Shown here piece by piece: positions 19,363 through 57,145 of a DNA stretch of 64,000 bases (the first letter of the stretch is position 1; every line of letters starts with the position of its first letter). The stretch is from a virus (Duplodnaviria; Heunggongvirae; Uroviricota; Caudoviricetes), in IMG/VR virus record IMGVR_UViG_3300010356_003454, positions 72,820-136,819 of that record. One strand, written 5' to 3'. Below the pieces are notes generated by a model. That model was given only the letters and a program-made list of their open reading frames with translations. It did no database searches and was not told where the DNA came from. The position numbers were made by a program, and so were the translations under genes.

Positions 19363-19401
19363 AAAATATTTTTTTATCTCGGAAAGATTTCTTAAATTAG
19401 C
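19363..19401 (+). promoter_or_regulatory. conserved intergenic module copy (AAAATATTTTTTTATCTCGGAAAGATTTCTTAAATTAGC)
   Basis: One of four near-identical 40-nt copies (the others are at 26154, 35754 and 50442). A CCGTTAAAA element lies just upstream. Confidence 0.35.
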
Positions 19402-19426
19402 TGTGTAAACTAAAAAAACACAGAGA

Positions 19427-19780
19427 ATGAAAAGATCATCTAGCACAAGAAACTCCTATTTTTGGGTATTTGCAGTCCTGATATTGGTTGCCCTAATATC
19501 TGGAGCAGCTTATCAGTATGGGACCGCAAGAGAGGTAGAGATCACCGTCCAGGATAAGGAGAGAATCGTAAAGGGCTCAGGCGATGGACTTGAGAGCTAT
19601 TATCTGATCTTTACCAAAGATGCTACTTACAAGAATGAGGATACTTTTCTGTATTTGAAATTCCGCTCTTCTGATCTCCAGGGAAAATTCCAGATTGGTC
19701 AGACCTATAAGGTTAAGGTATATGGATGGAGAATAGGCTTTTTCTCAACTTATCCGAATATCGTAAAAATCGTGAAATAA
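19427..19780 (+). CDS. membrane-anchored hypothetical protein
   Basis: N-terminal TM helix or signal anchor. Confidence 0.35.
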   Translation: MKRSSSTRNSYFWVFAVLILVALISGAAYQYGTAREVEITVQDKERIVKGSGDGLESYYLIFTKDATYKNEDTFLYLKFRSSDLQGKFQIGQTYKVKVYGWRIGFFSTYPNIVKIVK

Positions 19781-20490
19781 TGGAAGGATTTATCTATAAT
19801 ATCGCGCTGAAGATTGTTGAAAGCCGTAAGGCTAAACAGGAATCTCTGAAAGCTTCTGATGAGGAAGCAGAGAAAAAGAGAAGGGAGAATTGGAAAAGAC
19901 ATTCTGAACTTATTGCTAAATTCAGGAATCAATTTATAGCTGATCTGGAAGCAGATTACGCTAAAAAGAATAAACCCAAATTTGAGGTTGGGCAAAAGGT
20001 CCTAATGAATCCTTATTCACCTGGGGATCATTGGGAAGGCAGCGTCAGATCTCTTCTATCTCATACCCCATTTAGAGGCCCCGTAGAAGTAATTATTGAT
20101 TCTGCGGGTCTGGATTCAGGATGCCTTTATGAGGCAATTGATAATTTGAGAGAACGAGGTCATCTGGAAAAAATCCAATTCGGAATGGATTATGAAAAGT
20201 TTATAGATATCGTTCTGAATAAGATTTTTAGCGATAGCACCTATCAATGGGTTATGTATACTTACAGGTTCCATAAAAAAGGAGAGGAAGGAAAATATTG
20301 GTGCTATCCACTTCGAGAGGATAAGTTTGTAAGTCTCCATTCTAAAGAGGGAAAGGCCATTTTGAAGCTTGGAAAACTCGAAGCTCAGGTCGAAGAGAAA
20401 AAAGAGGCTGCAAAAAGAGCAAGAGAGGAATACGAATCTCTTCAAAAAGACTTTCACAAGAAAATAGGTATTACTTATACTATAGCATAA
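19780..20490 (+). CDS. hypothetical protein
   Basis: ATG at 19780 overlaps the upstream stop (TAATG). Confidence 0.4.
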   Translation: MEGFIYNIALKIVESRKAKQESLKASDEEAEKKRRENWKRHSELIAKFRNQFIADLEADYAKKNKPKFEVGQKVLMNPYSPGDHWEGSVRSLLSHTPFRGPVEVIIDSAGLDSGCLYEAIDNLRERGHLEKIQFGMDYEKFIDIVLNKIFSDSTYQWVMYTYRFHKKGEEGKYWCYPLREDKFVSLHSKEGKAILKLGKLEAQVEEKKEAAKRAREEYESLQKDFHKKIGITYTIA

Positions 20491-20687
20491 TGAAAATATT
20501 AGGTTCAACTTGGTTTACTCAAATGGGAGGCACTCTCATTGGGATTGTTAAGACCCAGAACGAGGTCGGAGAAATTAAGTATTATATTGGTAGCTGTTTT
20601 GGCGATTGTCAGGAAGAAGACGAAAAGAGTATTGCTGAAAGAGGAGCAAAATTTCCTGAAACTGCTGGTAAAATACTGATACCGTAA
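20490..20687 (+). CDS. hypothetical protein
   Basis: Small ORF. Confidence 0.3.
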   Translation: MKILGSTWFTQMGGTLIGIVKTQNEVGEIKYYIGSCFGDCQEEDEKSIAERGAKFPETAGKILIP

Positions 20688-20729
20688 TCTACGAAACTTA
20701 CCGGGATATATAAATAAATTCCAATAAGT

Positions 20730-21332
20730 ATGATTATTTATAAAACTATCAATTTAATAAACGGAAAAATTTATGTGGGTCAGGATTCGAATAATAATCC
20801 TGATTATTTGGGCTCGGGATTATTATTAGAGAAGGCTTTTGAAAAATACGGAAAGGAAAATTTTAAAAAAGAAATTTTGGAAGAATGTTTTTCTAAGGAA
20901 GAATTAAATATAAGGGAAATATTTTGGATTAAAGAGCTAAATTCTAATAATAAAGATATCGGATACAATATAGCCAAAGGCGGATTGGGGGGAGATACAA
21001 TATCTAATAATCTTAAGAATAGGGAATTTAGAAAATTTTTATCAGACAGAAATAAAAAATTATATCAAGATAAATCAAATCATCCTATGTTTGGCAAATC
21101 ACAATCAAAAGAATCTAATGATAAAAGAAGAAATTCTTTATTGGGGATAAAAAGAAGCCAGATAACTAAGGATAAGCAATCAAAATCCGCGACCGGGAAA
21201 AATAATTCGGCTTTTGGAAAAAAATGGATTCATAATAAAGAATTAAAAATTCAGAAGCTGGTCCCAAAAGATGAATATAAAAGAATCATAAAAAATGCCG
21301 GCTGGATTTCAGGAATGCTTAAAAAGGGATAA
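20730..21332 (+). CDS. GIY-YIG homing endonuclease
   Basis: MIIYKTINLINGKIYVGQ (GIY-YIG). Basic C-terminal DNA-binding region with NUMOD-like repeats. Confidence 0.65.
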   Translation: MIIYKTINLINGKIYVGQDSNNNPDYLGSGLLLEKAFEKYGKENFKKEILEECFSKEELNIREIFWIKELNSNNKDIGYNIAKGGLGGDTISNNLKNREFRKFLSDRNKKLYQDKSNHPMFGKSQSKESNDKRRNSLLGIKRSQITKDKQSKSATGKNNSAFGKKWIHNKELKIQKLVPKDEYKRIIKNAGWISGMLKKG

Positions 21333-21334
21333 CC

Positions 21335-21799
21335 ATGATCAGAGATTACATAATTAAGATGTTTAAAAAGTCTTTTGAAAAAGAATATTACGAGACTTAT
21401 TGGGCTTTTGATCTTCATGGGACGATAATAAAACCAACCTATGACGAAACCATTAGAGTAGAATATTATCCATTTGCAAAGGAGTGTCTTCAGATCTTAA
21501 CGGAGAGAAAGGACATTATCATGATTCTCTGGACCTCATCATATCCGCAAGAGATAATTGATTATATCTATCTCATGGAAAAGGATGGGATAAAATTTGA
21601 TGATGTAAATAAGAATCCCGATATAAGTTCTAAAAATGGGAATTTTGGATATTATCAGGATAAGTTTTATTTTAATGTTCTTTTTGAGGATAAGGCGGGG
21701 TTTAACCCTGAGACCGAATGGGAAATGATTTATGAGTATTTGATTGATTGTGAAAATGCAGGATATCTCCCAAATTCCGAATGGACAACTAAATATTAA
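21335..21799 (+). CDS. hypothetical protein (weak HAD-like DxxGT motif)
   Basis: AFDLHGTII resembles HAD motif I. No other support. Confidence 0.3.
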   Translation: MIRDYIIKMFKKSFEKEYYETYWAFDLHGTIIKPTYDETIRVEYYPFAKECLQILTERKDIIMILWTSSYPQEIIDYIYLMEKDGIKFDDVNKNPDISSKNGNFGYYQDKFYFNVLFEDKAGFNPETEWEMIYEYLIDCENAGYLPNSEWTTKY

Positions 21800-21803
21800 A
21801 GAT

Positions 21804-22004
21804 ATGGAAGAGCAGATTAAAAAAATTGATCATTATGTCAGACTTCTTAATGATGCTATGGGCATAAGGATTTCAGTTCAGATCAAAGGCTCTCTTGGAG
21901 TAATTATGGAAGATGAGAGGGTTATCTTTACCACGTCGGCGATACAGCCTACCGGTATAATTGAGGCGTATTTAATGGGATTTGTTACAGCTTTAACACG
22001 ATAA
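21804..22004 (+). CDS. hypothetical protein
   Basis: ATG at 21804 just after the upstream stop. Confidence 0.25.
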   Translation: MEEQIKKIDHYVRLLNDAMGIRISVQIKGSLGVIMEDERVIFTTSAIQPTGIIEAYLMGFVTALTR

Positions 22005-22006
22005 AA

Positions 22007-22330
22007 ATGAAAAGTTACATTCATGAATTTCGCAAATGGGGACCAGTTTCTCGCTGCATCGTTCATATTAAAGAAGTAGGCGATTCTACTTGGATCGGAT
22101 TCGAAAACAGGAGGGATGGAACCTCGGTTACAAATGCTTCAGAAGATCTGGCTACGGGGATTGTTGCCAAAGAAGGCCTGGATCCAGCGAAATGCAGATT
22201 CTTCGAATTTTATCCAGAGTACGAAGGAGATGTAGATGAAATCACATATACCTGGGATTCAGAAGGAAAGGCAAGAAATCCCCAATGGAGACCATTTGTA
22301 AAAGCAGAAAATAATCCCTTTCTTGGATAA
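22007..22330 (+). CDS. hypothetical protein
   Basis: ORF. Confidence 0.35.
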   Translation: MKSYIHEFRKWGPVSRCIVHIKEVGDSTWIGFENRRDGTSVTNASEDLATGIVAKEGLDPAKCRFFEFYPEYEGDVDEITYTWDSEGKARNPQWRPFVKAENNPFLG

Positions 22331-22866
22331 TGGATTTTACGAGGGGCATAGAAGTTAAGCAGGCTATTGGAATAGGAAATCCAGATCGATTAGCTTTTAT
22401 AAAGGCATTTAATTCAGATCAATATACCGATCTTGCAGCTCTCCCGATAAACCATATTATTGATGGCGTAGGGATAGGTCTTATAACTATTGATGAGATA
22501 AAGATTTTTTTGGATAAGTTTGTTGAAAAATTTGATACTAATTCTAATTATCATAAGACCAGATGGGTTTTGGATGAATTTTTCAATACTTTTAATGTTA
22601 GTATAAGTGTTGAAAAACGTATCCCAAAAATTAAGATAAAATTTCAATTAGCTGAAAATAAATTTATTAGCTATAGGATGTGGAAAGAAGGCGATGAATA
22701 TTATGTAAGGGGTATTGGAACCTATTATTCTCCTAACTTTGATTCTAACCGGCCATTATTCAGATGTCCTGTGAACCAATCTTTTTTTGCAGGGATTCCC
22801 CCAATAACAATAATGTTTAGGGATATGGATAGAATAGTTAAAGATCTTATGTCATATAATAGGTGA
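22330..22866 (+). CDS. FERG-leader family protein (leader MDFTRGIEVKQAIGIGN, no MRAK)
   Basis: Truncated form of the leader. Confidence 0.45.
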   Translation: MDFTRGIEVKQAIGIGNPDRLAFIKAFNSDQYTDLAALPINHIIDGVGIGLITIDEIKIFLDKFVEKFDTNSNYHKTRWVLDEFFNTFNVSISVEKRIPKIKIKFQLAENKFISYRMWKEGDEYYVRGIGTYYSPNFDSNRPLFRCPVNQSFFAGIPPITIMFRDMDRIVKDLMSYNR

Positions 22867-22896
22867 AATTTTGAATAAATAGAATAAAAAGTAATC

Positions 22897-23448
22897 ATGA
22901 AGAAAAAGTGGGTGTGGATCATTATTGCAGCTATTATAGTCCTTGTAGGATTTATAATTTTTATAAATGTTCGTCAGAAAAAACTTGATGCTAGGCCTTT
23001 CAATGTCTATGAATATCCCGAGACAATAAAGATTATTAATGGAACAGAATTTTCTAAAGCAGATACTATAATATTATCTCTAGCTCACCAAGTTTTTAAA
23101 TTCGATTCTGTTCAAATTCTTTTATACTATATTCCAGATCATTTGAATTCAGGAGAAATGGAATTTTATGGTATAGTTCAGCAGACTCCTTTTGATAAGA
23201 ATAAATTTCTGATATTGGTCAATAGAAAATTAGATCTTACAGATCTTTTTACGACTCTTTCTCATGAATTTGTTCATATCGATCAGTATAAGAGAGGAGA
23301 CCTAGAAATTATAGGAAAATATGCTGTTTGGCAAGGAGACACTTTAGATATGACACAGGTTAAATATGAGACTAGACCATTTGAAAAAGAGGCGTTTGGA
23401 AACCAGAGAGTTATTGCTAAAGAAGTAAAAGAATTCCTATATGAATGA
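22897..23448 (+). CDS. membrane-anchored HExxH metallopeptidase-like protein
   Basis: N-terminal TM helix. HEFVH motif. Confidence 0.4.
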   Translation: MKKKWVWIIIAAIIVLVGFIIFINVRQKKLDARPFNVYEYPETIKIINGTEFSKADTIILSLAHQVFKFDSVQILLYYIPDHLNSGEMEFYGIVQQTPFDKNKFLILVNRKLDLTDLFTTLSHEFVHIDQYKRGDLEIIGKYAVWQGDTLDMTQVKYETRPFEKEAFGNQRVIAKEVKEFLYE

Positions 23449-23966
23449 GAGCTAAAACTGTAAATTTCCAGAGGGGATTAGATCCGAAGGAGGCCTTGGA
23501 AATAGGTAATGAAAATCTAAGGCAATTCCATAAAGATATGGATAATGGAAATTTTTTGGCTCCTCTTCATATTTTGATGGATGGGCTGGAAAGAGGATAT
23601 ATCTCGGATAAAGAAGCTGATGAGTTTATAATTGGAGCAGTCAGAACTAGTGCTCCCAGATATTGGGAATGGACTAAATGGTTTGAGGATACAAGAAATA
23701 TCTATTGGTCTGAATTTAATGAGTCTCTAAATATTAATTTTACGCTTCCCGATTTTAAGAGGATTAAAACATGGATAGGTAAAATAACAGAACATGATGG
23801 AGGTTATTGGTTTAAGATGAGAACTTCTTCCACTGATAAAAATGGAAATGGATATGGCATAGAGACGGAAAATGTTTTTTCGGATGATGATTATGCTTTT
23901 ACATCTAAATTTATCTTGAATCAAATTAATAGAGTATTTACAGAAACAGTTAGAAATATAGATTAA
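23445..23966 (+). CDS. MRAK/FERG-leader family protein
   Basis: Leader MRAKTVNFQRGLDPKEALEIGN. Confidence 0.55.
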   Translation: MRAKTVNFQRGLDPKEALEIGNENLRQFHKDMDNGNFLAPLHILMDGLERGYISDKEADEFIIGAVRTSAPRYWEWTKWFEDTRNIYWSEFNESLNINFTLPDFKRIKTWIGKITEHDGGYWFKMRTSSTDKNGNGYGIETENVFSDDDYAFTSKFILNQINRVFTETVRNID

Positions 23967-25614: not shown

Positions 25615-25615
25615 T

Positions 25616-26134: not shown

Positions 26135-26153
26135 ATCTTAACGATTTTTTAAC

Positions 26154-26193
26154 AAAATTATTTTTTTATCTCGGAAATTATTCTTACATTAGC
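26154..26193 (+). promoter_or_regulatory. conserved intergenic module copy
   Basis: AAAATTATTTTTTTATCTCGGAAATTATTCTTACATTAGCC, preceded by CTTAACGATTTTTTAAC. Confidence 0.35.
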
Positions 26194-26212
26194 CTCTATA
26201 AAAGAATAGAGT

Positions 26213-27307: not shown

Positions 27308-27324
27308 ATTAAAACTATATATTT

Positions 27325-28164
27325 ATGGAGATAGGTTATATTTATGCGATAATTAATAAAAGGAATGGTAAATTTTATTTTGGCAAAACCTTTGATATTC
27401 AAAAAAGGTGGAAAAAACATGTTTTTAATGCTACTAAAAAAATAAATCGAAAACTTTATGATTCTATGAATTCATATGGTTATGATTATTTTTCTATTCA
27501 TCAAATTGGAATATACAAAGCAGAAAATAAAAATGAATTAACTAAGATACTAAATGAAAGGGAAAGATACTTTATAAATTTTTCTGATTCTGTTTTACTT
27601 GGCTATAATATGGCTCCTGGCGGGGATGGCGGATATTTAGGGGAGGAAGCTATACAAAAGATATCAAATAAAAAGAAGGGAATAAATTTAACAGAGGAAC
27701 ATAAAAAACATATTTCAGAAGGGAATAAAGGGATTTCAAAAATAGTATCGGAAAAAACAAAGAACAGGATTAGAAAAACTTGTAAAGAAAAAGGAATAAA
27801 ACCGCCGGCACAATATTGGGGAAGACCCGGATATAATGAACATCCGATGCTAAATAAGCATCATACAGAAGAAGCCAGAAATCTGATGAGTCAATATAGA
27901 TCCGGGAAATCCTATGAAGAAATTTACGGAAAAGAAAAAGCAAAGAAATTGAGGTTGGAAAAATCAAAAAGATGGATGGGAAATAAAATAAACTTTAAGG
28001 AAGTAGATTTAGAATTAGCAGAAAATCTTCTTCAGAAAGGAAAAAATTATAAAGAAGTCGCAAAATTTTTAGGAATTAGTTTAACAACATTTAATTATAA
28101 ATTTCGAGAAAAACATAACATAACACCGTATCAATATAGTTTAAATTTAAAAATAATGTCATGA
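27325..28164 (+). CDS. GIY-YIG homing endonuclease
   Basis: MEIGYIYAIINKRNGKFYFGKT (canonical GIY-YIG). NUMOD3-like LTEEHKKHIS. C-terminal HTH-like region. Confidence 0.75.
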   Translation: MEIGYIYAIINKRNGKFYFGKTFDIQKRWKKHVFNATKKINRKLYDSMNSYGYDYFSIHQIGIYKAENKNELTKILNERERYFINFSDSVLLGYNMAPGGDGGYLGEEAIQKISNKKKGINLTEEHKKHISEGNKGISKIVSEKTKNRIRKTCKEKGIKPPAQYWGRPGYNEHPMLNKHHTEEARNLMSQYRSGKSYEEIYGKEKAKKLRLEKSKRWMGNKINFKEVDLELAENLLQKGKNYKEVAKFLGISLTTFNYKFREKHNITPYQYSLNLKIMS

Positions 28165-32710: not shown

Positions 32711-32731
32711 GTTAAACTTTTGTTAAAAAAG

Positions 32732-32765
32732 TTCCCGAGGTATCGTTGATATCTCGGGAATTTTT
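32732..32765 (+). terminator. rho-independent terminator fused to a -10-like TATATTAG
   Basis: ttcccgag/ctcgggaa 8-bp perfect stem followed by TTTTT, then TATTATATTAGCC. Confidence 0.5.
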
Positions 32766-32794
32766 ATTATATTAGCCCTATAAAACAAAAGATT

Positions 32795-34999: not shown

Positions 35000-35755
35000 A
35001 TGAAAGAAGAATTTTCACCACTGACAATTGAGAAATTAGAGCATTATGTCTATACACTTTCTGATTCTCGGACCGGCCAGGTTTTCTATGTAGGTAAGGG
35101 AGTTGGAAACAGAGTATTTTCTCATGTGAATGATGCTCTGGAAACAGAATCAGAATCAGATAAACTGGATCATATTAGATATCTGATAGCTAAAGGATTC
35201 CCGCCAAAACATACTATAGTCCGCCATGGAATGGACAAGGATACGGCATTTGAGGTTGAAGGAGCTCTTATTGATGCATTTCAATTAGAAGGCCTTAAGA
35301 ATGAGGTAAATGGCCATCATAACAATCAGAGAGGACGTCGGGATTGGCAGGATATAGAAATCGAGTATGGAGCCGTTTCAGCGACCATAGACGATCCTGT
35401 TATCATACTTAAGACATCAGATTGGAGTTGGGATAAAGTGTCTAATACGGTCATATATGATAATATACGCAAAGGCTGGTGGGTCTCAGGTGATAAGAGG
35501 AAGAAGATCAAGTATGCATTGGCTATAAAGTCAGGTATTGTTAGAGAGGTCTATGCTATAGACCATTGGGACGATAACTGGGGAATTACTAACAAGAAGG
35601 GAACTGCATGTAAGAAGGATTTTGTTGGAACTGTGGCTCCTGTAGAGATCAGGGATAAGTATATCTATAAGGATGTTTCGGCATATTTTGCTATTCCGAG
35701 ATTACAGAAAGCATATGTTAATGTAGATGACAAAAAGAAGGAAAAAAATCCATAA
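35000..35755 (+). CDS. GIY-YIG nuclease-like protein
   Basis: HYVYTLSDSRTGQVFYVGKGVGNRVFSH has the GIY-YIG core plus a conserved Arg. Confidence 0.5.
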   Translation: MKEEFSPLTIEKLEHYVYTLSDSRTGQVFYVGKGVGNRVFSHVNDALETESESDKLDHIRYLIAKGFPPKHTIVRHGMDKDTAFEVEGALIDAFQLEGLKNEVNGHHNNQRGRRDWQDIEIEYGAVSATIDDPVIILKTSDWSWDKVSNTVIYDNIRKGWWVSGDKRKKIKYALAIKSGIVREVYAIDHWDDNWGITNKKGTACKKDFVGTVAPVEIRDKYIYKDVSAYFAIPRLQKAYVNVDDKKKEKNP

Positions 35756-35794
35756 AATATTTTTTTATCTCGGAAAGTTTGTTTATATTTAGAG
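35754..35794 (+). promoter_or_regulatory. conserved intergenic module copy
   Basis: AAAATATTTTTTTATCTCGGAAAGTTTGTTTATATTTAGAGG followed by GTAATTAAAAA and the ATG at 35813. Confidence 0.35.
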
Positions 35795-35812
35795 GTAATT
35801 AAAAACAAAAAA

Positions 35813-38128: not shown

Positions 38129-38157
38129 TTTTTTCTTAAATTTTAACGTTTTTTCTT

Positions 38158-38187
38158 CCCAAACATCGTTGGTGTTTGGGAATTTTT
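38158..38187 (+). terminator. rho-independent terminator in a conserved module
   Basis: cccaaaca/tgtttggg stem followed by T-run. Preceded by AATTTTTTCTTAAATTTTAACG, which is identical to the sequence at 49742. Confidence 0.5.
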
Positions 38188-38220
38188 GTTTATATTTATA
38201 GTGTAATTAAACTTAGTGAG

Positions 38221-40626: not shown

Positions 40627-40676
40627 TCGTTAACTTTACGAAATATTTATTATATTTAAGTATAAATTATAACTAA

Positions 40677-43696: not shown

Positions 43697-44143
43697 ATGG
43701 ACGAGATAAAAAAGAAGGAATTAGAGGAGAGAAGAAAGGCCCGAAGAAAAATCAGCGCGGAAGATTTTACTCCGATTGAATTAGTTAATGAAATGCTCGA
43801 TAAGTTACCTGCTGAAGTATGGGCCGATCCTAATAAGACCTTTTTGGATAACAGTGGAGGAAATGGAAATTTTGTTGTTGAAGTATTAAGAAGAAAATTA
43901 GAAAGGGGCCACGATCCTCTTCAGGCTCTGTCCACAATATATTCTGTAGAACTAATGTATGATAACGTTGAAGAGATGCATCATCGCATGTACTCAATTG
44001 TTAAAGATTTTCTCCATACTCAAGAAGATAAAGACAAGGCATTCAAAATAATCAAGGAGAATCTGGTCTGCCACGACGCATTGACCTGGGATTACGAAAA
44101 CTGGTGCTCACCAAATACTCATCACGCAGTTCCTCTTTTTTAA
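43697..44143 (+). CDS. methyltransferase N-terminal-domain paralog (lacks catalytic NPPY half)
   Basis: FTPIELVNEMLDKLPAEVW...FLDNSGGNGNF aligns with residues of the 40677 MTase (FTPSFLVREMLDKIPAEIW...FLDPCFGSGTF). The ORF ends before motif IV. Confidence 0.45.
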   Translation: MDEIKKKELEERRKARRKISAEDFTPIELVNEMLDKLPAEVWADPNKTFLDNSGGNGNFVVEVLRRKLERGHDPLQALSTIYSVELMYDNVEEMHHRMYSIVKDFLHTQEDKDKAFKIIKENLVCHDALTWDYENWCSPNTHHAVPLF

Positions 44144-44225
44144 CTACTCCTTAACGATATATTCTATCTATTTTTAAAACTATTATTTTATATCTTATAA
44201 TAGGGATATAATTTAAACTAATAAA

Positions 44226-47941: not shown

Positions 47942-47947
47942 TAAAAT

Positions 47948-48571: not shown

Positions 48572-49455
48572 TGAAGGCTATGAGAGTCATAGAATCGGTA
48601 GAATTTCAGAGAGGAGCAGATCCATATACTTCTTTAGGTATAGGAAAGTCTACTCAAAGGGATTTTTCTGGTGGTAAAGAACTCATAGAATGGGCTTATA
48701 ATTTTCCTGCAGTATGGTCTAAGGGGGAGATCCCGGAATGGAATGATTCTGATTACATAATTAGAAAACCATTCGGCGGATACCTCGAAGAAGTCTATAT
48801 ACAGAGAATGAGGAATATAAAGCTTATAGTAATAAAATGGATTAAAGATAATATTACTATTAATGGAGAGCCTTTAAGCCTTAAAGAAGCTATGAATATG
48901 TTTGAAGAAATTCAGAAGTTCGTTATTAAGAATCTAGAAAGGGAACGGGGAATTAGAGAGAGCATAGATTTTCATAAAGGAGGTAATCCGCTGGATACGC
49001 TAGAGGTTGGCAGAATAGAGGAAAGAAAGGATGCAGCATATAGATCTTTTATGGATTGGCTTTCTACATACTCATTTAAGGAGGCAGATGTTATTGAAGA
49101 GACTTATGATCAACCTTATGGATTCTTTGGTGATGATGAAAAGGAGGCTTTGATATTTAATGGATTAACTGTTGATGAAGTTTCTAAGAAAACTCCAGAA
49201 GAAATGGAGAGATATTTCAAAATTGTAGAAGAGGTTTTCGGCCTCACTTTTTGGGCCGCTGAAATAGCTAAATTGGAATATGAAGAATATAAAACTATGC
49301 CAGAGGAGGATAAAGAGGAGCTGGAGCAAAAGATAGAAGATGATTTTGGAACATATAATTTTTTGGAATATCTTGTAAAGTATTTCATTAATAAATGGCC
49401 AGGAAAGGTAAAAATAAAAGATCCATATGAGAGCAAAAAGCGTAAACGAAGCTAA
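48571..49455 (+). CDS. FERG-leader protein with two modules
   Basis: N-terminal MKAMRVIESVEFQRGADPYTSLGIGK. Internal IDFHKGGNPLDTLEVGR. Confidence 0.5.
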   Translation: MKAMRVIESVEFQRGADPYTSLGIGKSTQRDFSGGKELIEWAYNFPAVWSKGEIPEWNDSDYIIRKPFGGYLEEVYIQRMRNIKLIVIKWIKDNITINGEPLSLKEAMNMFEEIQKFVIKNLERERGIRESIDFHKGGNPLDTLEVGRIEERKDAAYRSFMDWLSTYSFKEADVIEETYDQPYGFFGDDEKEALIFNGLTVDEVSKKTPEEMERYFKIVEEVFGLTFWAAEIAKLEYEEYKTMPEEDKEELEQKIEDDFGTYNFLEYLVKYFINKWPGKVKIKDPYESKKRKRS

Positions 49456-49744: not shown

Positions 49745-49773
49745 TTTTTTCTTAAATTTTAACGAAATTCCAG

Positions 49774-49802
49774 CCGTAATATTTTTTTATTACGGTTTTT
49801 TT
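49774..49802 (+). terminator. rho-independent terminator in a conserved module
   Basis: ccgtaata/tattacgg perfect 8-bp stem followed by a 7-T run, then TTGTTTATATTAGC and GTAATTAAAA. Preceded by AATTTTTTCTTAAATTTTAACG. Confidence 0.55.
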
Positions 49803-49835
49803 GTTTATATTAGCTCTGTAATTAAAATTAATTTT

Positions 49836-50432
49836 ATGCCACAAGGAGATCTGGTCAGTGTTTATAATATTAAGGATACCGAAATTTACGAAGATAATAA
49901 CTGGGACCTTAATGAGGGGTTTAATGATAGGGACTGCAATTTCTACGAGAAGAAAGAGGAGAAGGGTATAAGACCTAATCGCGATAAGGACGGGAAAATT
50001 CCGTTGAATCTTGGATGCGGAGTTCGAATGAGAGATAAGTATGGACAATTCCTCTATACTGATAAAGAGAAAGCTGAAGGATATGATCGGGAGGTAACTC
50101 TCAACGTCACTTCATGGATTGGTACATCTCCTGGAGCTATTCACTATTATGGAAATATGCATTTCAGAACTTGCACTGTTCATCCAGAGGGCCAGCCAAC
50201 TTGCTCTACCTCTTGCTGGGATATTCCTCTATTTGGATCTGGAAATATTCAGCTTACCAGAGAACTCGAAGCTTGGGAGTTTAAGAGGTATCCCAAGACT
50301 TATGACGGCTGGTATCCTGGAGATAGCTATTCCGGATTCTATACCCCGGAGGATGTTATAGCCAGAGGTAAACAGGTCTTTAAAGATCTCTTCGGAAAGG
50401 GATGGAAACTTAAAATTGATCGAAGGTATTAA
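49836..50432 (+). CDS. Cys-containing hypothetical protein
   Basis: ORF downstream of a module. Confidence 0.4.
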   Translation: MPQGDLVSVYNIKDTEIYEDNNWDLNEGFNDRDCNFYEKKEEKGIRPNRDKDGKIPLNLGCGVRMRDKYGQFLYTDKEKAEGYDREVTLNVTSWIGTSPGAIHYYGNMHFRTCTVHPEGQPTCSTSCWDIPLFGSGNIQLTRELEAWEFKRYPKTYDGWYPGDSYSGFYTPEDVIARGKQVFKDLFGKGWKLKIDRRY

Positions 50433-50441
50433 ATTTATCCC

Positions 50442-50480
50442 AAAATATTTTTTTATCTCGGAAAGATTCATTATATTAGC
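50442..50480 (+). promoter_or_regulatory. conserved intergenic module copy
   Basis: AAAATATTTTTTTATCTCGGAAAGATTCATTATATTAGC, 17 nt before the ATG at 50497. Confidence 0.35.
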
Positions 50481-50496
50481 ATATAAATTATCACCA

Positions 50497-50733
50497 ATGG
50501 CAGCTAAGATAGACTTAACCACAAAAAAGAGATTTCTGGAAATTCCAGAAAGAAAGAGATTTGGCTGGTCTCCCTATATGCAGGAAATTCTTAAAATCCA
50601 GTTTCCCCGTAATGCTGTTAAAGTAATGGCGCAGAAATCTGTTATTAGGGGAAAAAAATTATGCCTCTTTGGGAAGTTCATTTGGGATTATCAGATCGAA
50701 GTTGTTGATTACAAAGAATTTGTAAGGGAATAA
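50497..50733 (+). CDS. hypothetical protein
   Basis: ATG at 50497 downstream of the module. The tracked ORF begins earlier inside the module. Confidence 0.3.
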   Translation: MAAKIDLTTKKRFLEIPERKRFGWSPYMQEILKIQFPRNAVKVMAQKSVIRGKKLCLFGKFIWDYQIEVVDYKEFVRE

Positions 50734-50798: not shown

Positions 50799-51617
50799 AT
50801 GCTTAAAAGAAATTGTCCATATTGTGATGCTGAAATTAAATATAGGAATGAAAAATCCTATAAATTTGCTATTAAGAATGAATCTGTTTGCAGGAGCTGC
50901 TCCGGGAAAATCAATACGTGGAATATTAGATTAAAGAACGGGGAAGCTAAAAATCCTTTTTTAGATAAAAACCACTCTAAAGAAGCTATTCAAAAAATGA
51001 GAGATTCACGGGCATCCAGGTCTGAAAAATATAAAACAGATGAATTTAGAAAAAATGTTTCTAAAGTAACTTCCGGAGAAAGAAATCCAATGTATGGAAA
51101 GAATTTAATGGATACTTGGATAGAAAAATATGGATTAGAAGAAGCATTAAAAAAGGAGAAAAGACGGAAACAAAAATTATCAAAAGCTTTTTCGGGGGAT
51201 AAAAATCCAATGTACGGTAGGGAAACCCCTAAAAAATCAGGTAAAGGAATTTCTGGCTGGTATGGAAGTTTTTATTTTAGAAGTTTGCATGAATTGAAAT
51301 TCATAATTTCCTGCGAACGATTCGGGTTAGAAATTTTATCTGCGGAGGACTTAAAAATACCATATAAAAATTATGATGGAACGGATAGAACATATTCTCC
51401 AGACTTTATTGTAGATAATAATTTTTTAGTTGAGGTCAAACCAAAAAAACTTTTCAAAACACCCTCTAATTTATTGAAATTTGATTCCGCAAAAAAATAC
51501 GCTTTAGAAAATAATTTAATCTTTAAAGTATTGGATTTTGGAATAATACTCAAAGATGAACTTAATAGATTGATAGAGTCGCAAGCAGTAAAATTAAATG
51601 TTGAATATGACTTATAA
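50799..51617 (+). CDS. putative homing-endonuclease-like nuclease (Zn finger + NUMOD3 repeats + C-terminal PD-(D/E)xK-like)
   Basis: CPYCD...CRSCSG Zn finger. Repeated NPMYGK/NPMYGR (NUMOD3). C-terminal SPDFIVDNNFLVEVK is PD...ExK-like. Confidence 0.4.
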   Translation: MLKRNCPYCDAEIKYRNEKSYKFAIKNESVCRSCSGKINTWNIRLKNGEAKNPFLDKNHSKEAIQKMRDSRASRSEKYKTDEFRKNVSKVTSGERNPMYGKNLMDTWIEKYGLEEALKKEKRRKQKLSKAFSGDKNPMYGRETPKKSGKGISGWYGSFYFRSLHELKFIISCERFGLEILSAEDLKIPYKNYDGTDRTYSPDFIVDNNFLVEVKPKKLFKTPSNLLKFDSAKKYALENNLIFKVLDFGIILKDELNRLIESQAVKLNVEYDL

Positions 51618-52032: not shown

Positions 52033-52045
52033 AAATAATCTAAAA

Positions 52046-52261: not shown

Positions 52262-52263
52262 AA

Positions 52264-52803: not shown

Positions 52804-52857
52804 GCATCATTGTAATTGCGAAAGATTTATTATATTTGAACATTAATATATGAAGCT

Positions 52858-53049
52858 ATGGTAAAGTTCTTAGTAAATATTCTCTCCTGGGTGCTTCTGC
52901 TTGCCGCCCTTGTATTTTTCATAGGTATCTTCTACTTCGTGATCGAGAAAGATTCCGATAATGCTTTTATTTGCGTCCTTTTAGGATGGACCAGCTACTT
53001 TTTAGGCTGGGGAGCTAGAAATTATTATCTCTTACTTAAAAACAAGTAA
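52858..53049 (+). CDS. small two-TM membrane protein (holin-like topology)
   Basis: 63 aa. Two TM helices. Charged C-terminus. Confidence 0.3.
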   Translation: MVKFLVNILSWVLLLAALVFFIGIFYFVIEKDSDNAFICVLLGWTSYFLGWGARNYYLLLKNK

Positions 53050-53050
53050 T

Positions 53051-53308
53051 ATGAATAACGATCTTAAAAAACTTTCTGACCACGAGATCAAGATACGAAA
53101 AGATGATCTCATCAGGGCTGAATCCGGTATCAAAATTCTTCTTGCCGAAAAAAGGGCTGTTTATAACAAGAAGATACAGAAGAGGTGGACGAATCCTGTT
53201 AAAATACTGGATCTCAAGAGGGAAATGGATGATCTGGAAAAGGCACTCTACTTGCTTAATGAATATTCCCGGACATTGACCGATGAAAGTAATTCCAGGA
53301 TGAAATAA
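53051..53308 (+). CDS. hypothetical coiled-coil protein
   Basis: ORF. Confidence 0.3.
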   Translation: MNNDLKKLSDHEIKIRKDDLIRAESGIKILLAEKRAVYNKKIQKRWTNPVKILDLKREMDDLEKALYLLNEYSRTLTDESNSRMK

Positions 53309-53357
53309 TCACAAAACTCTTAACAATATTTTAACTATAAATTCTAAATAGAAAGAA

Positions 53358-53987
53358 ATGTCAGACGAACAAACTCCCATCCAGAAGCTCTACTCAGATC
53401 CCAAAGCTAAAGGATTCGTTAATCACTTAATTGGAGCTTATCTCCCTATCCATAAAATCGAAAAGGTCTGGAACTTTAAATCCACTCAAAAACATCGCTG
53501 TAATGTCTGCGGCCAGAAGCTCTTCGATATTCAGACCGTTTGGGATAACATGCACAAAAATGATGAGAAGCTCCGGGCAGAATTCATGCCTCATCTTCAA
53601 AAACAGCTGGCAGGGGAAGAGACCAAACTCGAAGAGCATCCCATGTATAAGTATGTTACCCAGGGAGCGGTCCAGGCCTGGACTGGTAAGAAAACTGATA
53701 CCTGTCTCTGCAACAAATGTATTTCAGATCTTCTTGATATGGTCCAGACTGGCCTTTTAATGGATGATAAAAATATTGTTTGGCTTATCAACAAAATGAG
53801 AAGATCGGAAGTATTTGATGTATTCAAGGCCAGCGAAAAACTAACACCCACCGATAAAGAAGAGGTGGAACGAATAGAGAAAAAAGTCGAGAGATCGCCA
53901 GATAAGAAAGTTGCTACGTTTGGCGACCTTGAAGTCTTACAGCAACTTAAAGCAAAAATGGAGGCTGAAGAAAATGGCAAAGAATAA
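53358..53987 (+). CDS. Cys-rich (Zn-binding-like) hypothetical protein
   Basis: CNVCGQK and CLCNKC pairs. Confidence 0.4.
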   Translation: MSDEQTPIQKLYSDPKAKGFVNHLIGAYLPIHKIEKVWNFKSTQKHRCNVCGQKLFDIQTVWDNMHKNDEKLRAEFMPHLQKQLAGEETKLEEHPMYKYVTQGAVQAWTGKKTDTCLCNKCISDLLDMVQTGLLMDDKNIVWLINKMRRSEVFDVFKASEKLTPTDKEEVERIEKKVERSPDKKVATFGDLEVLQQLKAKMEAEENGKE

Positions 53988-54204
53988 AGAAGAAATTAGG
54001 GTTGTCAGAAAGATCCGAAGGATTGAATTCTGGTATAAGGACGAATTCTATGTCTATGAATTCCGAAGTGAGAACAACACCGGGTACTCTTTCATCTGGA
54101 AGAATGGGGCAAGGATATATGGACCTATGATAAATCACTCTACAGAGGAGGGGATTGAGGTCTATAATGCGATCCAGCCTAAAATCGTAAATAAGGAAAT
54201 TTGA
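53974..54204 (+). CDS. hypothetical protein
   Basis: ATG at 53974 overlaps the upstream gene end. Confidence 0.3.
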   Translation: MAKNKEEIRVVRKIRRIEFWYKDEFYVYEFRSENNTGYSFIWKNGARIYGPMINHSTEEGIEVYNAIQPKIVNKEI

Positions 54205-54293
54205 TTTTTAACAAACTTTTAACGCTTAAAATTTTTTTAAAATTTAACTTTTTCTTATATTAAGGTGTAATAAATATAGAGAAATTACCTAAC

Positions 54294-55004
54294 ATGAAAA
54301 TAATACTTAATACTCAGAGCTCAGAATTACTTAATTATTTTATAAGGGCTTCGAAGAATTCTGCATCAGGACCAGAGAGTAAAAGAGCAGAAATCCAAGG
54401 ATCTAGAGTCGAATCCGGCCTTTTTGATCATATAGGAGTTCCTTCCGTTGATGCATATCTTATAGAAGTTCCGACATCTTATTCTAAAAGGGCCGTTGAC
54501 TTTATCAAAAAGAAAACTCCTTATGTTCCCGTAATTCTGTTTGGCTCGCCTGAATCCCTGATTGAGGTTTCCGGTGCAGATATTTACATTCCACTTTGCA
54601 ATTATTCAGAAGAATTCTTTGCAAGTTTCTACCAGTTAGCTATTTGGAATGCTTCGAATTATATTCGTAATTTCGAAAAGCTTCGTAAATTAACCACGAA
54701 GATGAGTGATGTTATCGAATTCAATAATTGTAAGTATGATCCTACCCGCAGGACTCTATTCTATAAAGGGAGCGAGTTAAAGAGGCTATCGGCTAAAGAG
54801 GGCGGAATTATAGAAGTTCTTGCTTCTAATTTTGGGGAGGTGGTTAAGAAAGAAATCATCTTGGAGAAGGTATGGCATAAATCAGACTATTTCTCCGGTC
54901 GCTCAATGGATGTCTATGTCACGCATCTAAGGACCTTATTTAAGGAGAACGATGTTGATGTTAATATAAAGAATATCTCCGGTGTTGGACTAATACTTGA
55001 ATAA
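54294..55004 (+). CDS. OmpR/PhoB-type winged-helix transcriptional regulator-like protein
   Basis: The C-terminal LKRLSAKEGGIIEVLASNFGEVVKKEIILEKVWHKSDYFSGRSMDVYVTHLRTLFKE matches the trans_reg_C winged-helix pattern. The N-terminal region is not clearly a receiver domain. Confidence 0.5.
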   Translation: MKIILNTQSSELLNYFIRASKNSASGPESKRAEIQGSRVESGLFDHIGVPSVDAYLIEVPTSYSKRAVDFIKKKTPYVPVILFGSPESLIEVSGADIYIPLCNYSEEFFASFYQLAIWNASNYIRNFEKLRKLTTKMSDVIEFNNCKYDPTRRTLFYKGSELKRLSAKEGGIIEVLASNFGEVVKKEIILEKVWHKSDYFSGRSMDVYVTHLRTLFKENDVDVNIKNISGVGLILE

Positions 55005-55257
55005 TATGAGTGTTTTTCGAAAATTTCAGAATACCCGAATCGATCTGGAAAAAGTTATGGTCTATAGGCCATATACAAATTCCGTCAGAAGAGAAGATGC
55101 ATGGGATAAAATAATTTTCTATACTTCTCGATATCCCGAATGTTTTGAGGTCTATTATAATAGTGTTGAGGAAAGGGAGATTCTTTTGAAGGACCTTAAA
55201 TTTTTAGATGATTACTTTGCGATAAAATCTCCGGAGGAAGAGCGAATATTGCCATAA
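54997..55257 (+). CDS. hypothetical protein
   Basis: ORF. Confidence 0.3.
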   Translation: MNNMSVFRKFQNTRIDLEKVMVYRPYTNSVRREDAWDKIIFYTSRYPECFEVYYNSVEEREILLKDLKFLDDYFAIKSPEEERILP

Positions 55258-55359
55258 ATCTAACGTTTTTTAACGTTTCATAAGTCATTTAGATCCTCAA
55301 ATATTTTTTTATTTGGGGATTTTTTCTTACATTTACTTAGTAATTAAAACTATAAGACA

Positions 55360-55962
55360 ATGAAACGCTTAATTATCCTCTGGACACTCTTACTTCTCCC
55401 GCTTTTTGCAGGTGCCCAGTTTTCGATAGATTCCGTAGGCTTTCAGGTTTATCGGGCTGATATCTATCAGGGGCAGGATACAGAAGAAGGCTTTTTCGCT
55501 AACAAGAGGAATTCTTACAATGTAGACGTTTTAGTCTATATTGAAGATGGCAAGATGACAAATAAGAATATGAGGGGTCAGCTTAAGTCTATGAGATTTC
55601 AAAAAGAGCCCAAGTATTTTTCTAACCTGGCTGAAGGAGTCCCTGGATATGAAATAGAGAGTAAAGACTTTGGAGGGTTCAATTGCGTTATCAGCATATT
55701 TTATCTTCAGGAGTCAAACTCATATAGGATTAGAATGGATTATTCAAATCTTCGAATCTTTTTATATGCTAATCCTACAAATGAAAGACCTTGGGATGAT
55801 CAAACAGATTTAATGCTGGTAAAAGATGCTCAGTCCTGGCCTAATGATCCTGATTATACGGATGAAGAAGTTATAGAGTATTTTAAAAAGCTGATGAACG
55901 GAGACGAGGTTTCAAAGGCTATTGCTAAAGCTCTTATTTTTGATGCAGTAAACGAATTTTAA
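55360..55962 (+). CDS. secreted hypothetical protein
   Basis: Signal peptide MKRLIILWTLLLLPLFAGAQ. Confidence 0.35.
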   Translation: MKRLIILWTLLLLPLFAGAQFSIDSVGFQVYRADIYQGQDTEEGFFANKRNSYNVDVLVYIEDGKMTNKNMRGQLKSMRFQKEPKYFSNLAEGVPGYEIESKDFGGFNCVISIFYLQESNSYRIRMDYSNLRIFLYANPTNERPWDDQTDLMLVKDAQSWPNDPDYTDEEVIEYFKKLMNGDEVSKAIAKALIFDAVNEF

Positions 55963-55970
55963 AAAAGAAT

Positions 55971-57074
55971 ATGAATTACACACTTGATTTTATCAGAAAG
56001 AATAATCTCATTATTTTTGAAGCAATAATGGGATCGCATGCATACGGAACCAATATTGAGACTTCGGATAAGGATATCCGAGGGGTCTTCATTCAGCCTC
56101 TTGAAGACATTCTTAAGTATGGATATAAGGATCAGGTTGCTGATAAGACCAACGATATTGTCTTTTATGAACTGAAGAGATTTCTCGGACTGGTTAAGAC
56201 TAATAATCCTAACATCCTTGAGCTCCTTAATGCTCCTGCAGATTGTATTATCTATAAGAATTCTCTTTATGATCTTATCGCTCAGAATGCTCGTCATTTT
56301 GTTACGAAGAAGTGCCGCTGGACTTTCGCTGGTTATGCTATCGAGCAGATTAGGAAGGCAAGGGGATACAACAAGATGATGAACTGGGAAGAATCTAAGA
56401 TGACCCGAAAGGGTGTTCTGGATTTCTGCTACATTATTGAAGGGGGAGAGACCATACTCCTTGAGGAATGGATCAGAAGAACCGGTAGAAATACAGAAGG
56501 ATCCCTCTTCAGCGATCAGAGAATGCTTGCTCTTGCAAAGATCGATCACGCTCATGACATTTATGCAGTTTATGATCTTAGTAATTTCAAGGGTCTTTAT
56601 GGAGTTGTTGGAAAGGAGAATGCAAATGATGTTCAGCTTACCTCTATCCCTAAGGGACAAAAGGTCGTTGCTATCCTTACTTTCAATAAGGACGCATACT
56701 CAACTCATTGCAAGAATTATCTGGCTTACCAGACTTGGCTGAAGGAGAGGAATGAGGATCGTTTCAAGATGAACAAGGCTCATGGTAAGAACTATGACTC
56801 GAAGAATATGATGCATACCTTCCGTCTTCTTAACATGGCTCTTGAGATTGCAGCTACCGGAGAGATAAGAGTTCGTAGATCAGATGAAGAAAGAGAAAAG
56901 CTTCTTAAGATCCGTCATGGCGAATACGATTATGATCTTCTTATCGAAGAAGCAGAAGATATGATCAAGGATCTTGATCGTGCATTCGATCAGTCTTCTC
57001 TTCCTGATAAAATTCACGATAGCTTTATCGCTAATCTTGAATATGAAATCAGAGAAAAAAGATATGGTCTTTAA
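55971..57074 (+). CDS. Pol-beta-superfamily nucleotidyltransferase (PF10127-like 'predicted NTase')
   Basis: MGSHAYGTNIETSDKDIRGVF matches the G[SG]...D.D NTase-fold signature. Confidence 0.5.
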   Translation: MNYTLDFIRKNNLIIFEAIMGSHAYGTNIETSDKDIRGVFIQPLEDILKYGYKDQVADKTNDIVFYELKRFLGLVKTNNPNILELLNAPADCIIYKNSLYDLIAQNARHFVTKKCRWTFAGYAIEQIRKARGYNKMMNWEESKMTRKGVLDFCYIIEGGETILLEEWIRRTGRNTEGSLFSDQRMLALAKIDHAHDIYAVYDLSNFKGLYGVVGKENANDVQLTSIPKGQKVVAILTFNKDAYSTHCKNYLAYQTWLKERNEDRFKMNKAHGKNYDSKNMMHTFRLLNMALEIAATGEIRVRRSDEEREKLLKIRHGEYDYDLLIEEAEDMIKDLDRAFDQSSLPDKIHDSFIANLEYEIREKRYGL

Positions 57075-57088
57075 CACACTTTTAACAC

Positions 57089-57116
57089 CCGGGATTTTTT
57101 AATCTCGGGTTTTTTC
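57089..57116 (+). terminator. rho-independent terminator in a conserved module
   Basis: cccgggat/atctcggg stem followed by TTTTTT, then CTTTATATTAGC. Confidence 0.5.
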
Positions 57117-57145
57117 TTTATATTAGCAAAATAAAATACAATCTT

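Follow-up and report, generated by a model that had tools for sequence, protein, structure and literature searches.

Repeated intergenic modules of a large uncultivated phage resemble Bacteroidota sigma-A promoters, some with nested terminators

RESULTS

A repeated module lies upstream of nonstructural genes

We analyzed a 64-kb stretch of an uncultivated phage of the Caudoviricetes (IMG/VR record IMGVR_UViG_3300010356_003454, positions 72,820 to 136,819), referred to below as the window, in which a short intergenic module is repeated ahead of many genes. The window has a GC content of ~35% and carries ~100 genes, almost throughout on the + strand, with an intergenic share of 4.9%. Its products include a fragment of a family-B DNA polymerase, a ribonucleotide reductase, an NAD-dependent ligase, a CCA/poly(A) polymerase, a helicase-like protein, an N6-methyltransferase, a 5'-3' exonuclease, a dUTPase, an RNA ligase, an RlaP-like nucleotidyltransferase, and a NUDIX hydrolase, the functions encoded in the region being nucleotide metabolism, replication, and RNA repair. 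Domain searches revealed no structural genes among ~80 window proteins, and Rfam and tRNA scans of the window returned nothing. The window looks like the nonstructural region of a large phage with a Bacteroidota host.

The original prediction had placed the module, a T-run followed by ATCTCGG, 10 nucleotides, and the box TATATTAG, between positions 19363 and 57127. The module is real, and all the copies cited were found at their coordinates except for one given as 38201, which starts at 38203; others lie outside that range (16052, 59573, and 63529). Searching the window for ATCTCGG-N10-TATATTAG with up to 3 mismatches gave 11 matches, compared to 4.06 expected, a number reached in 0 of 100 shuffles, and the 8 good matches were on the + strand only. 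A position weight matrix (PWM) covering positions -26 to +9 relative to the TA of the box, used with leave-one-out scoring and a threshold of 12 bits, identified 13 robust sites with leave-one-out scores of 12.5 to 36.9 bits (the first 13 modules of Table 1, each box starting with this TA), while shuffles of window length gave 0 to 1 site at 12 bits. Two further, weak sites (59573 and 63529) share the box and the upstream element but not the T-run part. All 13 robust sites are intergenic and on the gene (+) strand, with the TA of the box starting 25 to 40 nt before the start codon. Four copies (19363, 26154, 35754, and 50442) had been called near-identical over 40 nt; their 24-nt start is identical in three, but the overall identity is 75 to 90%, and the copy at 26154 has a 1-nt insertion. 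The recurrence of GTAATTAAA ahead of the ATG was observed in four copies on the + strand (35795, 38203, 49818, and 55340) and in none on the - strand.

The module is also better conserved than the genes around it. A metagenome scan with the 19-mer TATTTTTTTATCTCGGAAA recovered strains of the same phage (94 to 100% identity) and relatives at 80 to 87% identity, and the module was kept in four other phages whose flanks could not be aligned. The intergenic region 26135-26212 is 98.7% identical in relative L103, with one difference, versus 80.6% and 82.3% for the flanking coding sequences (CDSs). Similarly, module 50442 is 93.8% conserved versus ~80% for the downstream CDS (L108 and L144), module 49759 is 89.0% conserved versus 84.2% for the upstream CDS (L144), and module 38143 is 100% conserved in L126. 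Together with strand, intergenic placement, and distance to the start codon, this supports the view that the module behaves as a promoter.

L144, a relative with 85% identity, has lost the stop codon ahead of module 50442 (~560-700, equivalent to window 50416-50500), and an open frame continuous with that of the next gene spans the entire module. The 20-mer TTTTTTATCTCGGAAAGNTT, tried as an IMG/VR probe, gave one chance match in an unrelated contig of 45% GC. Downstream of the RlaP-like gene, where the window has the 57089 cassette, the orthologous site of 19 relatives has none, and their gene order differs, which makes positional conservation unusable at this locus.

The box matches the -7 element of Bacteroidota sigma-A promoters

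In Flavobacterium johnsoniae, the -7 element reads T-12 A-11 H H T-8 T-7 T-6 G-5, with the transcription start 4 to 5 nt downstream, while the -33 element is weak and AT-rich motifs lie near -18 and -28 (PMC6847099). Differential RNA sequencing of Bacteroides thetaiotaomicron gave the same -33/-7 grammar (PMC7366714). The loose likeness of TATATTAG to this -7 element, noted in the original prediction, holds and turned out to be the key to the identity of the module. Across the 15 boxes, T-13, T-12, A-11, A-9, T-8, and T-7 are invariant; -10 is T, A, or C and never G, -6 is T in 7 and A in 8, and -5 is G in 10 and A in 5. The box T-TA[T/C/A]ATT[A/T][G/A] agrees with the Bacteroidota sigma-A -7 element TAHHTTTG at 6 of 8 positions, and the defining TA-H-H-T-T (-12 to -7) is present in 15 of 15 boxes. 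Full TAnnTTTG boxes are found at three sites (16052, 52831, and 59573), and the relatives mostly have TTTG. At the -33 position, a TTG lies 18 to 19 nt upstream of the boxes at 32768, 38191, and 52831, and nine others have a T-run without G.

Compared with Bacteroidota sigma-A promoters (PMC6847099, PMC7366714), the modules share the four consensus bases among their invariant ones and the absence of G at -10 and -9, a T-rich or TTG element ~19 nt upstream, an AT-rich spacer, and short predicted leaders without a Shine-Dalgarno sequence, and the exact consensus occurs, identically arranged, in relatives of the phage. They differ from the consensus by the frequent A at -6 and -5 and by a -33 element that is usually TTTT, and they add a conserved T-13 and A-9, a GG at about -24/-23, and an upstream TTAAC tandem. 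We therefore consider it likely that the ~13 to 15 modules are promoters read by the normal Bacteroidota RNA polymerase with its housekeeping sigma-A and -33/-7 grammar. The dedicated, phage-specific promoter class first proposed does not agree with a box that matches the host -7 element, a T-run or TTG at -33, a TTAAC tandem that also occurs in Bacteroidota contigs, and relatives with canonical elements. Nor did the search for a phage sigma bring one to light: no sigma factor, RNA polymerase subunit, MotA/AsiA-like domain, or gp55-like domain was detected among ~80 proteins of the window.

According to this model, unmodified host RNA polymerase would transcribe nonstructural genes, including those for the ligase, helicase, methylase, NUDIX hydrolase, exonuclease, and a regulator, and many small open reading frames. 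The +1 would lie 12 to 13 nt after the TA, placing the -7 box at -12 to -5, the T-run or TTG at -36 to -30, where the -33 TTTG would be expected, and an optional TTAAC-N6-TTAAC at about -60 and -49. The 5' part of the spacer would be ATCTCGG or another sequence ending in YGG and its 3' part T-rich, at about -18. Transcripts would begin with an A/T-rich region, such as GTAATTAAAA starting at +1 (+/-1 nt) and similar sequences, and their leaders would be 13 to 28 nt long, without a Shine-Dalgarno sequence. In L119 (3102), L151 (minus strand, 2573), L041 (6242), and many more distant relatives, the ATG lies exactly 13 nt after the TA, at the predicted +1, which would imply leaderless mRNAs; in B. 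thetaiotaomicron, leaders of <10 nt represent ~3.7% of the 5' untranslated regions (PMC7366714).

Terminators are nested in five modules

Five modules contain a hairpin (32728-32764, 38156-38182, 49772-49797, 55291-55322, and 57087-57110) with a folding energy of -11.5 to -22.5 kcal/mol (z -5.1 to -7.7) that no shuffle equals, directly followed by T5 to T7. As expected for intrinsic (Rho-independent) terminators, all five are GC-containing, are followed by a U-tract, and lie downstream of a stop codon, and three of them were picked up by a terminator scan. The copies at 16015, 19355, 26146, 35746, and 50434 did not fold beyond shuffles (z about 0), so that genuine fusions of a terminator with a promoter make up about one-third to one-half of the modules. 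The coupling of promoters to terminators proposed originally thus applies to this share of the copies, while those with T-run-ATCTCGG are promoter-only. The constant 10-nt spacing reported earlier was also observed, but in the hairpin copies it corresponds to the U-tract of the terminator filling the promoter spacer. We tried to read the four T-run copies as hairpin remnants and rejected this, since outer CC/GG pairs are left in three but folding is no better than in shuffles.

In these five modules, the intrinsic terminator of the upstream gene would be embedded in the promoter, with the loop providing the -33 T-run or TTG, the 3' arm the GG-ending spacer, and the U-tract the T-rich -22 to -13 region. 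Terminator parts would thus double as promoter parts, and one ~60-nt cassette would end one transcription unit and start the next. More distant relatives carry TTAAC-N8-TTTG-N20-TAnnTTTGC, the ATG often following the TA by 13 nt, as well as hairpins whose loop contains TTTG, so that the nested layout is conserved across the clade. In Bacteroides phage B40-8 (L285), a GC-rich hairpin and a T-run stand immediately before a TATCTTTG box (8300-8357), which points to a Bacteroidota-type promoter with a nested terminator also in an unrelated cultured Bacteroides phage.

A TTAAC tandem lies at a fixed distance from the box

The original prediction missed an upstream element, TTAAC-N6-TTAAC, with a period of 11 nt. 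It is present in 8 exact copies in the window, all intergenic, compared to ~0.5 expected by an estimate from base composition. The second TTAAC starts 36 to 37 nt before the TA at 16052, 26185, 54256, 57119, 59573, and 63529, and in hairpin modules the offset is 47 to 48 or 58 nt, which keeps the helical phase. In IMG/VR relatives with 50 to 70% amino acid identity, 19 of 49 tandems are followed by a -7 box at exactly 37 nt, with canonical TAnnTTTG, and an unbiased histogram around candidate boxes gave TTAAC peaks at -48 and -37.

We then scanned genomes, one per species, with TTAAC-N6-TTAAC-N8-TTT-N21-TAnnTTTG and obtained at least 120 matches. Among the matches listed, ~90% were Bacteroidota by title, the genes that follow encode transporters, TetR regulators, an SNF2 helicase, TonB receptors, RecN, and an integrase, and 6 of 55 other canonical promoters in the host loci had a TTAAC at -37 or -36. 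Judged from these patterns, the tandem-TTAAC promoter architecture is clearly native to Bacteroidota, which argues for host polymerase or a host factor over a phage-specific system. The idea that the host tandem promoters are UP-element-like promoters of rRNA or tRNA genes was not retained, since among the matches listed only 1 of ~54 loci has a tRNA right behind and none an rRNA. Bacteroides phage B40-8 has one nested hairpin-promoter and no tandem TTAAC.

A limited literature search found no description of TTAAC-N6-TTAAC as a promoter element. The B. thetaiotaomicron motif search covered -50 to +1 only (PMC7366714), and a tandem at about -60/-49 would thus have been missed. The tandem resembles the UP elements of strong bacterial promoters and of the Bacteroides phage promoter P_BfP1E6 (mentioned in bioRxiv 10.1101/2025.03.18.644028), which are phased, A/T-rich, and located at about -40 to -60, in that it holds the helical phase at -60/-49 (offsets of 36 to 37, 47 to 48, and 58 nt); it is unlike them in being a discrete pentamer repeat rather than an A-tract and in its absence from B40-8. 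We regard the TTAAC tandem as a candidate upstream promoter element.

Relationship of the phage to Bacteroidota phages

A near-identity DNA search with 20 kb of the window found no match in cultured phages, and the window helicase, used as a probe for viral relatives, gave no matches. The DNA polymerase is nearest to that of the Prevotella Lak megaphages (39% at the amino acid level), followed by huge uncultured phages and then by Flavobacterium and Chryseobacterium phages, and the contigs of IMG/VR relatives reach 260 to 550 kb. Shine-Dalgarno sequences are absent ahead of the window start codons, as in Bacteroidota, and Escherichia coli-type (sigma-70) promoters are not enriched in the window (49 observed versus 60 expected). 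The probable link to a Bacteroidota host is indirect and is deduced from the kinship of the polymerase, the absence of Shine-Dalgarno sequences, and a promoter pattern that matches mostly Bacteroidota genomes.

A phage regulator and a second class of boxes

Gene 54294-55004 encodes a 236-amino-acid protein with an OmpR/PhoB-type winged-helix C-terminal domain, whose N-terminal half, judged by eye, resembles a degenerate receiver domain. The gene is kept in 11 relative loci, and a TTAAC-tandem promoter precedes it in the window as well as in six of the relatives (L033, L035, L036, L038, L039, and L040). OmpR/PhoB effector domains bind direct repeats ~10 to 11 bp apart, about one helical turn, and the 11-bp TTAAC period thus makes this regulator a candidate TTAAC binder. 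This assignment was weakened by the presence of the tandem in Bacteroidota contigs and in distant relatives that have no detectable homologue within 10 kb.

A second class of boxes, (A)TATAAAT, was observed at 1127, 4971, 6542, 20709, 27303, 32036, 42818, and 53336, and also at 40661 and 50482, where TATAAAT lies directly behind a first-class box and both classes stand in tandem for two genes. These boxes are located 21 to 30 nt before the start codons of the dUTPase, the DNA polymerase, two GIY-YIG endonucleases, and others. We take (A)TATAAAT to resemble the T4 late promoter TATAAATA, although a gp55-like sigma was not detected among the window proteins.

Alternative explanations

The modules could instead be activator-dependent, middle-type promoters, in which a phage factor at ATCTCGG (about -26) replaces -33 recognition in the manner of MotA/AsiA in T4, or they could be read at TATATTAG by a phage sigma. 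ATCTCGG is indeed separated by a constant 10 nt from the -10-like element downstream of it, a location near that of a MotA box, and is kept with and without a hairpin and in distant relatives; moreover, the -33 G is usually absent, -6 departs from the host consensus, and the phage encodes at least one DNA-binding regulator. This explanation is nonetheless unlikely, since hairpin modules that have TTTGGG, TTACGG, or TTTGGGG instead of ATCTCGG match the others in score and placement, the relatives use the canonical host TAnnTTTG with a -33 TTTG, and the window encodes no detectable MotA, AsiA, sigma, or gp55-like domain. In addition, the six modules from relatives' loci that had not been chosen by the 19-mer consist of a T-run or TTG, an AAAG-ATT spacer, and the box, without ATCTCGG, showing that ATCTCGG is not required.

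Another alternative, which we hold to be improbable, keeps the host sigma-A promoter but adds an operator: a phage regulator, perhaps the product of 54294-55004, would bind the T-run-ATCTCGGAAAG core or the TTAAC repeats and switch a subset of early promoters. The 24-nt core identical in three copies and the exact 19-mer in four other phages with unrelated flanks would suit an operator, but conservation of the 19-mer is biased by ascertainment, as the 19-mer was the search pattern. Likewise, the 11-bp period of TTAAC-N6-TTAAC suits direct-repeat binding by an OmpR/PhoB protein, and the regulator gene, present in eleven relative loci, is preceded by a promoter of this kind both in the window and in the six relatives named above; yet the tandem is common in Bacteroidota chromosomal contigs with unrelated genes and occurs in distant phage relatives, with no regulator homologue found within 10 kb on either side, which points to a host factor or polymerase contact.

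It is very improbable that the modules are not promoters at all but mobile or recombinogenic elements (MITE-like, homing targets, or PeSL-like crossovers) or RNA-level signals combining a terminator with a translation leader. The repeats are multicopy and 40 to 57 nt long, contigs of relatives often break at the module (L107, L108, and L163), and many homing endonucleases are encoded in the window, but there are no terminal inverted repeats or target duplications. Of ~8 indel breakpoints relative to L099, L103, L108, L115, L126, and L144, a small sample, only that at 49841 adjoins a module; the remaining ones fall within genes, coincide with a homing endonuclease, or lie between paralogous N-terminal coding repeats. 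PeSL-style recombination at the modules was rejected on these grounds. As to an RNA-level signal, five copies are bona fide terminators, but half of the copies have no hairpin, and the spacing between box and ATG, which ranges from 13 to 40 nt in the relatives, is ill suited to a ribosome-binding signal. The coding repeats just mentioned belong to at least 15 genes with a common N-terminus of ~25 amino acids (M-R/K-A-K-x-V-N-E..N-F-E-R-G-x-D-P-K-x-A-L-G-I-G), the proteins being otherwise diverse (Table 1). L115 lacks 48645-49455, a deletion between two such repeats, which makes the repeats, and not the promoter modules, the apparent substrate of recombination.

Several points weigh against host sigma-A promoters as well. 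The polymerase and sigma factor reading the modules, the +1, and the early timing are all predicted from the DNA sequence. Eight of the 15 boxes have A at -6 and five have A at -5, full TAnnTTTG being limited to three; with A replacing the nearly invariant T at -6, unmodified host sigma-A may recognize these boxes weakly or only with assistance. The G of the -33 TTTG is absent in most copies. Retention of ATCTCGG across three structural contexts and among distant relatives would not be expected of a plain sigma-A spacer, and the second box class shows that some other promoter specificity is also used by the phage. Phage transcription factors were sought in 64 kb of a genome of probably ~250 kb, the assignment to Bacteroidota is indirect, and the Bacteroidota share among the at least 120 matches listed cannot be normalized. 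Moreover, this lineage prefers boxes ending in TTAG or TTTA over TTTG, and neither the ATCTCGG core nor the frequent TTAG is explained by host promoters. Because of the persistence of ATCTCGG, the TTAG/TTTA preference, and the unexplained partner of TTAAC, we put the chance that a phage factor acts on these promoters at roughly one in four.

Other features of the window

Inverted repeats are found at two predicted 5' transcript ends, 19401-19424 (CTGTGT..ACACAG) and 26194-26211 (CTCTAT..ATAGAG), the second within the intergenic region 26135-26212 described above, and may form 5' stem-loops for mRNA stability or a translational operator. The window carries six or seven homing-endonuclease-like genes (GIY-YIG, NUMOD3, and TnsA-like; Table 1), of which 50799-51617 is missing from relatives L108, L115, and L144 and thus represents a presence/absence polymorphism. 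Positions 1154-2527 encode an extremely acidic protein of 457 amino acids, composed of 21-nt (7-amino-acid) Glu/Gly-rich tandem repeats and without a Pfam match.

Table 1. Predicted promoter modules and other features of the window. PWM, weight matrix score in bits; LOO, leave-one-out score.
Feature	Coordinates	Strand	Elements	Score, folding, and next gene
Module before NAD-ligase gene	16005..16059	+	T-run 16028-16034; canonical box TATATTTG 16052-16059; ATG 16084	TTAAC/TTAGC tandem 16005-16020, pattern match with 1 mismatch; PWM 35.5, LOO 32.2; no hairpin, fold z 0.06; ligase domains downstream
Module, T-run + ATCTCGG + N10 + TAAATTAG	19363..19400	+	Box 19393-19400; ATG 19427	PWM 38.9; no hairpin (z -0.09); DUF1523/secreted-protein family
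Module, T-run + ATCTCGG	26138..26192	+	TTAAC-N6-TTAAC 26138-26153; box TACATTAG 26185-26192; ATG 26213	PWM 38.2
Module with nested terminator	32711..32775	+	GTTAA-N6-GTTAA 32711-32726; hairpin 32728-32764; box TATATTAG 32768-32775; ATG 32795	17-bp hairpin, -22.5 kcal/mol, z -7.7, then U-tract; TTG of -33 in loop/3' arm; PWM 34.9; exact pattern match
Module, T-run + ATCTCGG	35754..35804	+	Box TATATTTA 35784-35791; GTAATTAAAA 35795-35804, at predicted transcript start; ATG 35813	PWM 37.9; fold z -0.46
Module with nested terminator	38143..38212	+	TTAAC 38143; hairpin 38156-38182; box TATATTTA 38191-38198; GTAATTAAAC 38203-38212; ATG 38221	-15.9 kcal/mol, z -5.1, then U-tract; loop TCGTTGG gives TTG; PWM 25.4; helicase-like, ResIII domain
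Weaker module	40632..40667	+	TTAAC 40632; box TATATTTA 40651-40658; TATAAAT 40661-40667; GTG 40677	PWM 22.8, LOO 12.5; N6-adenine methyltransferase
Module with nested terminator	49759..49827	+	TTAAC 49759; hairpin 49772-49797; box TATATTAG 49806-49813; GTAATTAAAA 49818-49827; ATG 49836	-11.5 kcal/mol, z -7.3, then U-tract; T6 loop at -33; PWM 35.8; found by terminator scan
Module, T-run + ATCTCGG	50442..50488	+	Box TATATTAG 50472-50479; TATAAAT 50482-50488; ATG 50497	Exact pattern match; PWM 39.9
Module, TTG at -33 (CATCATTGTAAT)	52805..52838	+	Canonical box TATATTTG 52831-52838; ATG 52858	PWM 27.1, LOO 20.3; variant also in L115
Module of OmpR/PhoB-type regulator gene	54208..54263	+	TTAAC-N6-TTAAC 54208-54223; T-run; box TATATTAA 54256-54263; ATG 54294	PWM 24.0
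Module with nested terminator	55265..55349	+	CTAAC/TTAAC tandem near 55259-55274; hairpin 55291-55322; box TACATTTA 55328-55335; GTAATTAAAA 55340-55349; ATG 55360	-14.4 kcal/mol, z -5.2, T loop, U-tract; PWM 37.1; found by terminator scan
Module with nested terminator	57071..57126	+	TTAAC-N6-TTAAC 57071-57086; hairpin 57087-57110; box TATATTAG 57119-57126; ATG 57146	-14.6 kcal/mol, z -5.4, 3' arm AATCTCGGGT, U-tract; PWM 35.6; found by terminator scan; NUDIX hydrolase
Probable promoter, same grammar without T-run/ATCTCGG	59525..59580	+	TTAAC-N6-TTAAC 59525-59540; canonical box TATATTTG 59573-59580, exactly 37 nt past second TTAAC; ATG 59603	Fails PWM built on T-run subfamily (LOO -11.0); 5'-3' exonuclease
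Terminator, then putative promoter	63453..63536	+	Hairpin ~63453-63480; TTAAC-N6-TTAAC 63481-63496; box TAAATTAG 63529-63536; ATG 63569	Terminator upstream of promoter, not nested; PWM 12.5, LOO -1.6
TTAAC-N6-TTAAC	16005-16020, 26138-26153, 44140-44155, 53320-53335, 54208-54223, 57071-57086, 59525-59540, 63481-63496			
Inverted form, GTTAA	32711-32726			
Homing-endonuclease-like genes	13133-13819 (-), 20730-21332, 27325-28164, 35000-35755, 50799-51617, 58739-59539			
Genes with shared N-terminus	2602, 3036, 3981, 10733, 22333, 23454, 32789, 33740, 34072, 34394, 34677, 37093, 45988, 46604, 46976, 48592, 49445			

DISCUSSION

The modules are probably analogous to the PeSL cassettes of T4-type phages, as host-polymerase promoters fused to terminators. 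PeSLs combine an early promoter with a stem-loop terminator and occur as many conserved intergenic copies in plastic genome regions (PMC2839356, PMC4122927). Like them, the modules form many conserved composites of a terminator hairpin and an apparent host-sigma promoter (13 to 15 copies, five nested and one with the terminator upstream, at 63453), lie between genes in the nonstructural, ORFan-rich part of a large phage genome, have an AT-rich upstream stretch and a short leader, and include degraded partial copies. Unlike PeSLs, they use the -33/-7 elements of Bacteroidota rather than the -35/-10 elements of sigma-70, in line with the sigma-70 scan, and their hairpin is inside the promoter (the loop being the -33 element and the U-tract the spacer) rather than just upstream of it. 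The modular shuffling by which PeSLs are functionally defined was not apparent at the small number of breakpoints available, and the DNA polymerase groups the phage with Lak and other huge phages.

A comparison can also be drawn with T4 middle promoters, which like the modules are sometimes fused to stem-loops, as in the PmSL cassettes of phage nt-1 (PMC4122927). As in T4 middle promoters, a conserved box lies 10 nt (11 to 13 nt in T4) upstream of a -10-like element, and the -35/-33 element is poor. However, no MotA/AsiA homologue was found in the 64-kb window, and the modules do have a -33-like T-run or TTG. In contrast to an invariant MotA box, ATCTCGG is present in 6 of the 13 window modules, the others having TTTGGG, TTACGG, TTAAGG, AATTGCG, or other sequences with the same placement and comparable PWM scores.

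More speculatively, and at a probability that we consider low, the modules may reflect a so far undescribed grammar. Phased TTAAC-N6-TTAAC, with a constant spacing to the -7 box that puts it at about -60/-49, would be common to host chromosomes and a broad jumbo phage clade; on top of it, a lineage-specific operator (T-run-ATCTCGGAAAG and the TTAG box variant) would allow the OmpR/PhoB-type regulator or another phage factor to control a subset of early promoters, and the nested terminators would represent a conserved, space-saving design.

Overall, the modules are probably host-type promoters of a large phage, useful but fairly ordinary, rather than a new polymerase specificity. Their regulatory grammar alone would tie an uncultivated phage, probably a jumbo phage from anaerobic-digester-type metagenomes, to a Bacteroidota host, and the modules would supply compact promoter and terminator parts, probably strong ones, ready for use in Bacteroidota. 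The fixed-distance TTAAC tandem, found in phages and host genomes, is a testable candidate upstream promoter element. Finally, the terminator-promoter cassette design of T4-type coliphages appears to recur, here with the terminator nested, in a phage lineage that is unrelated and follows another sigma grammar.

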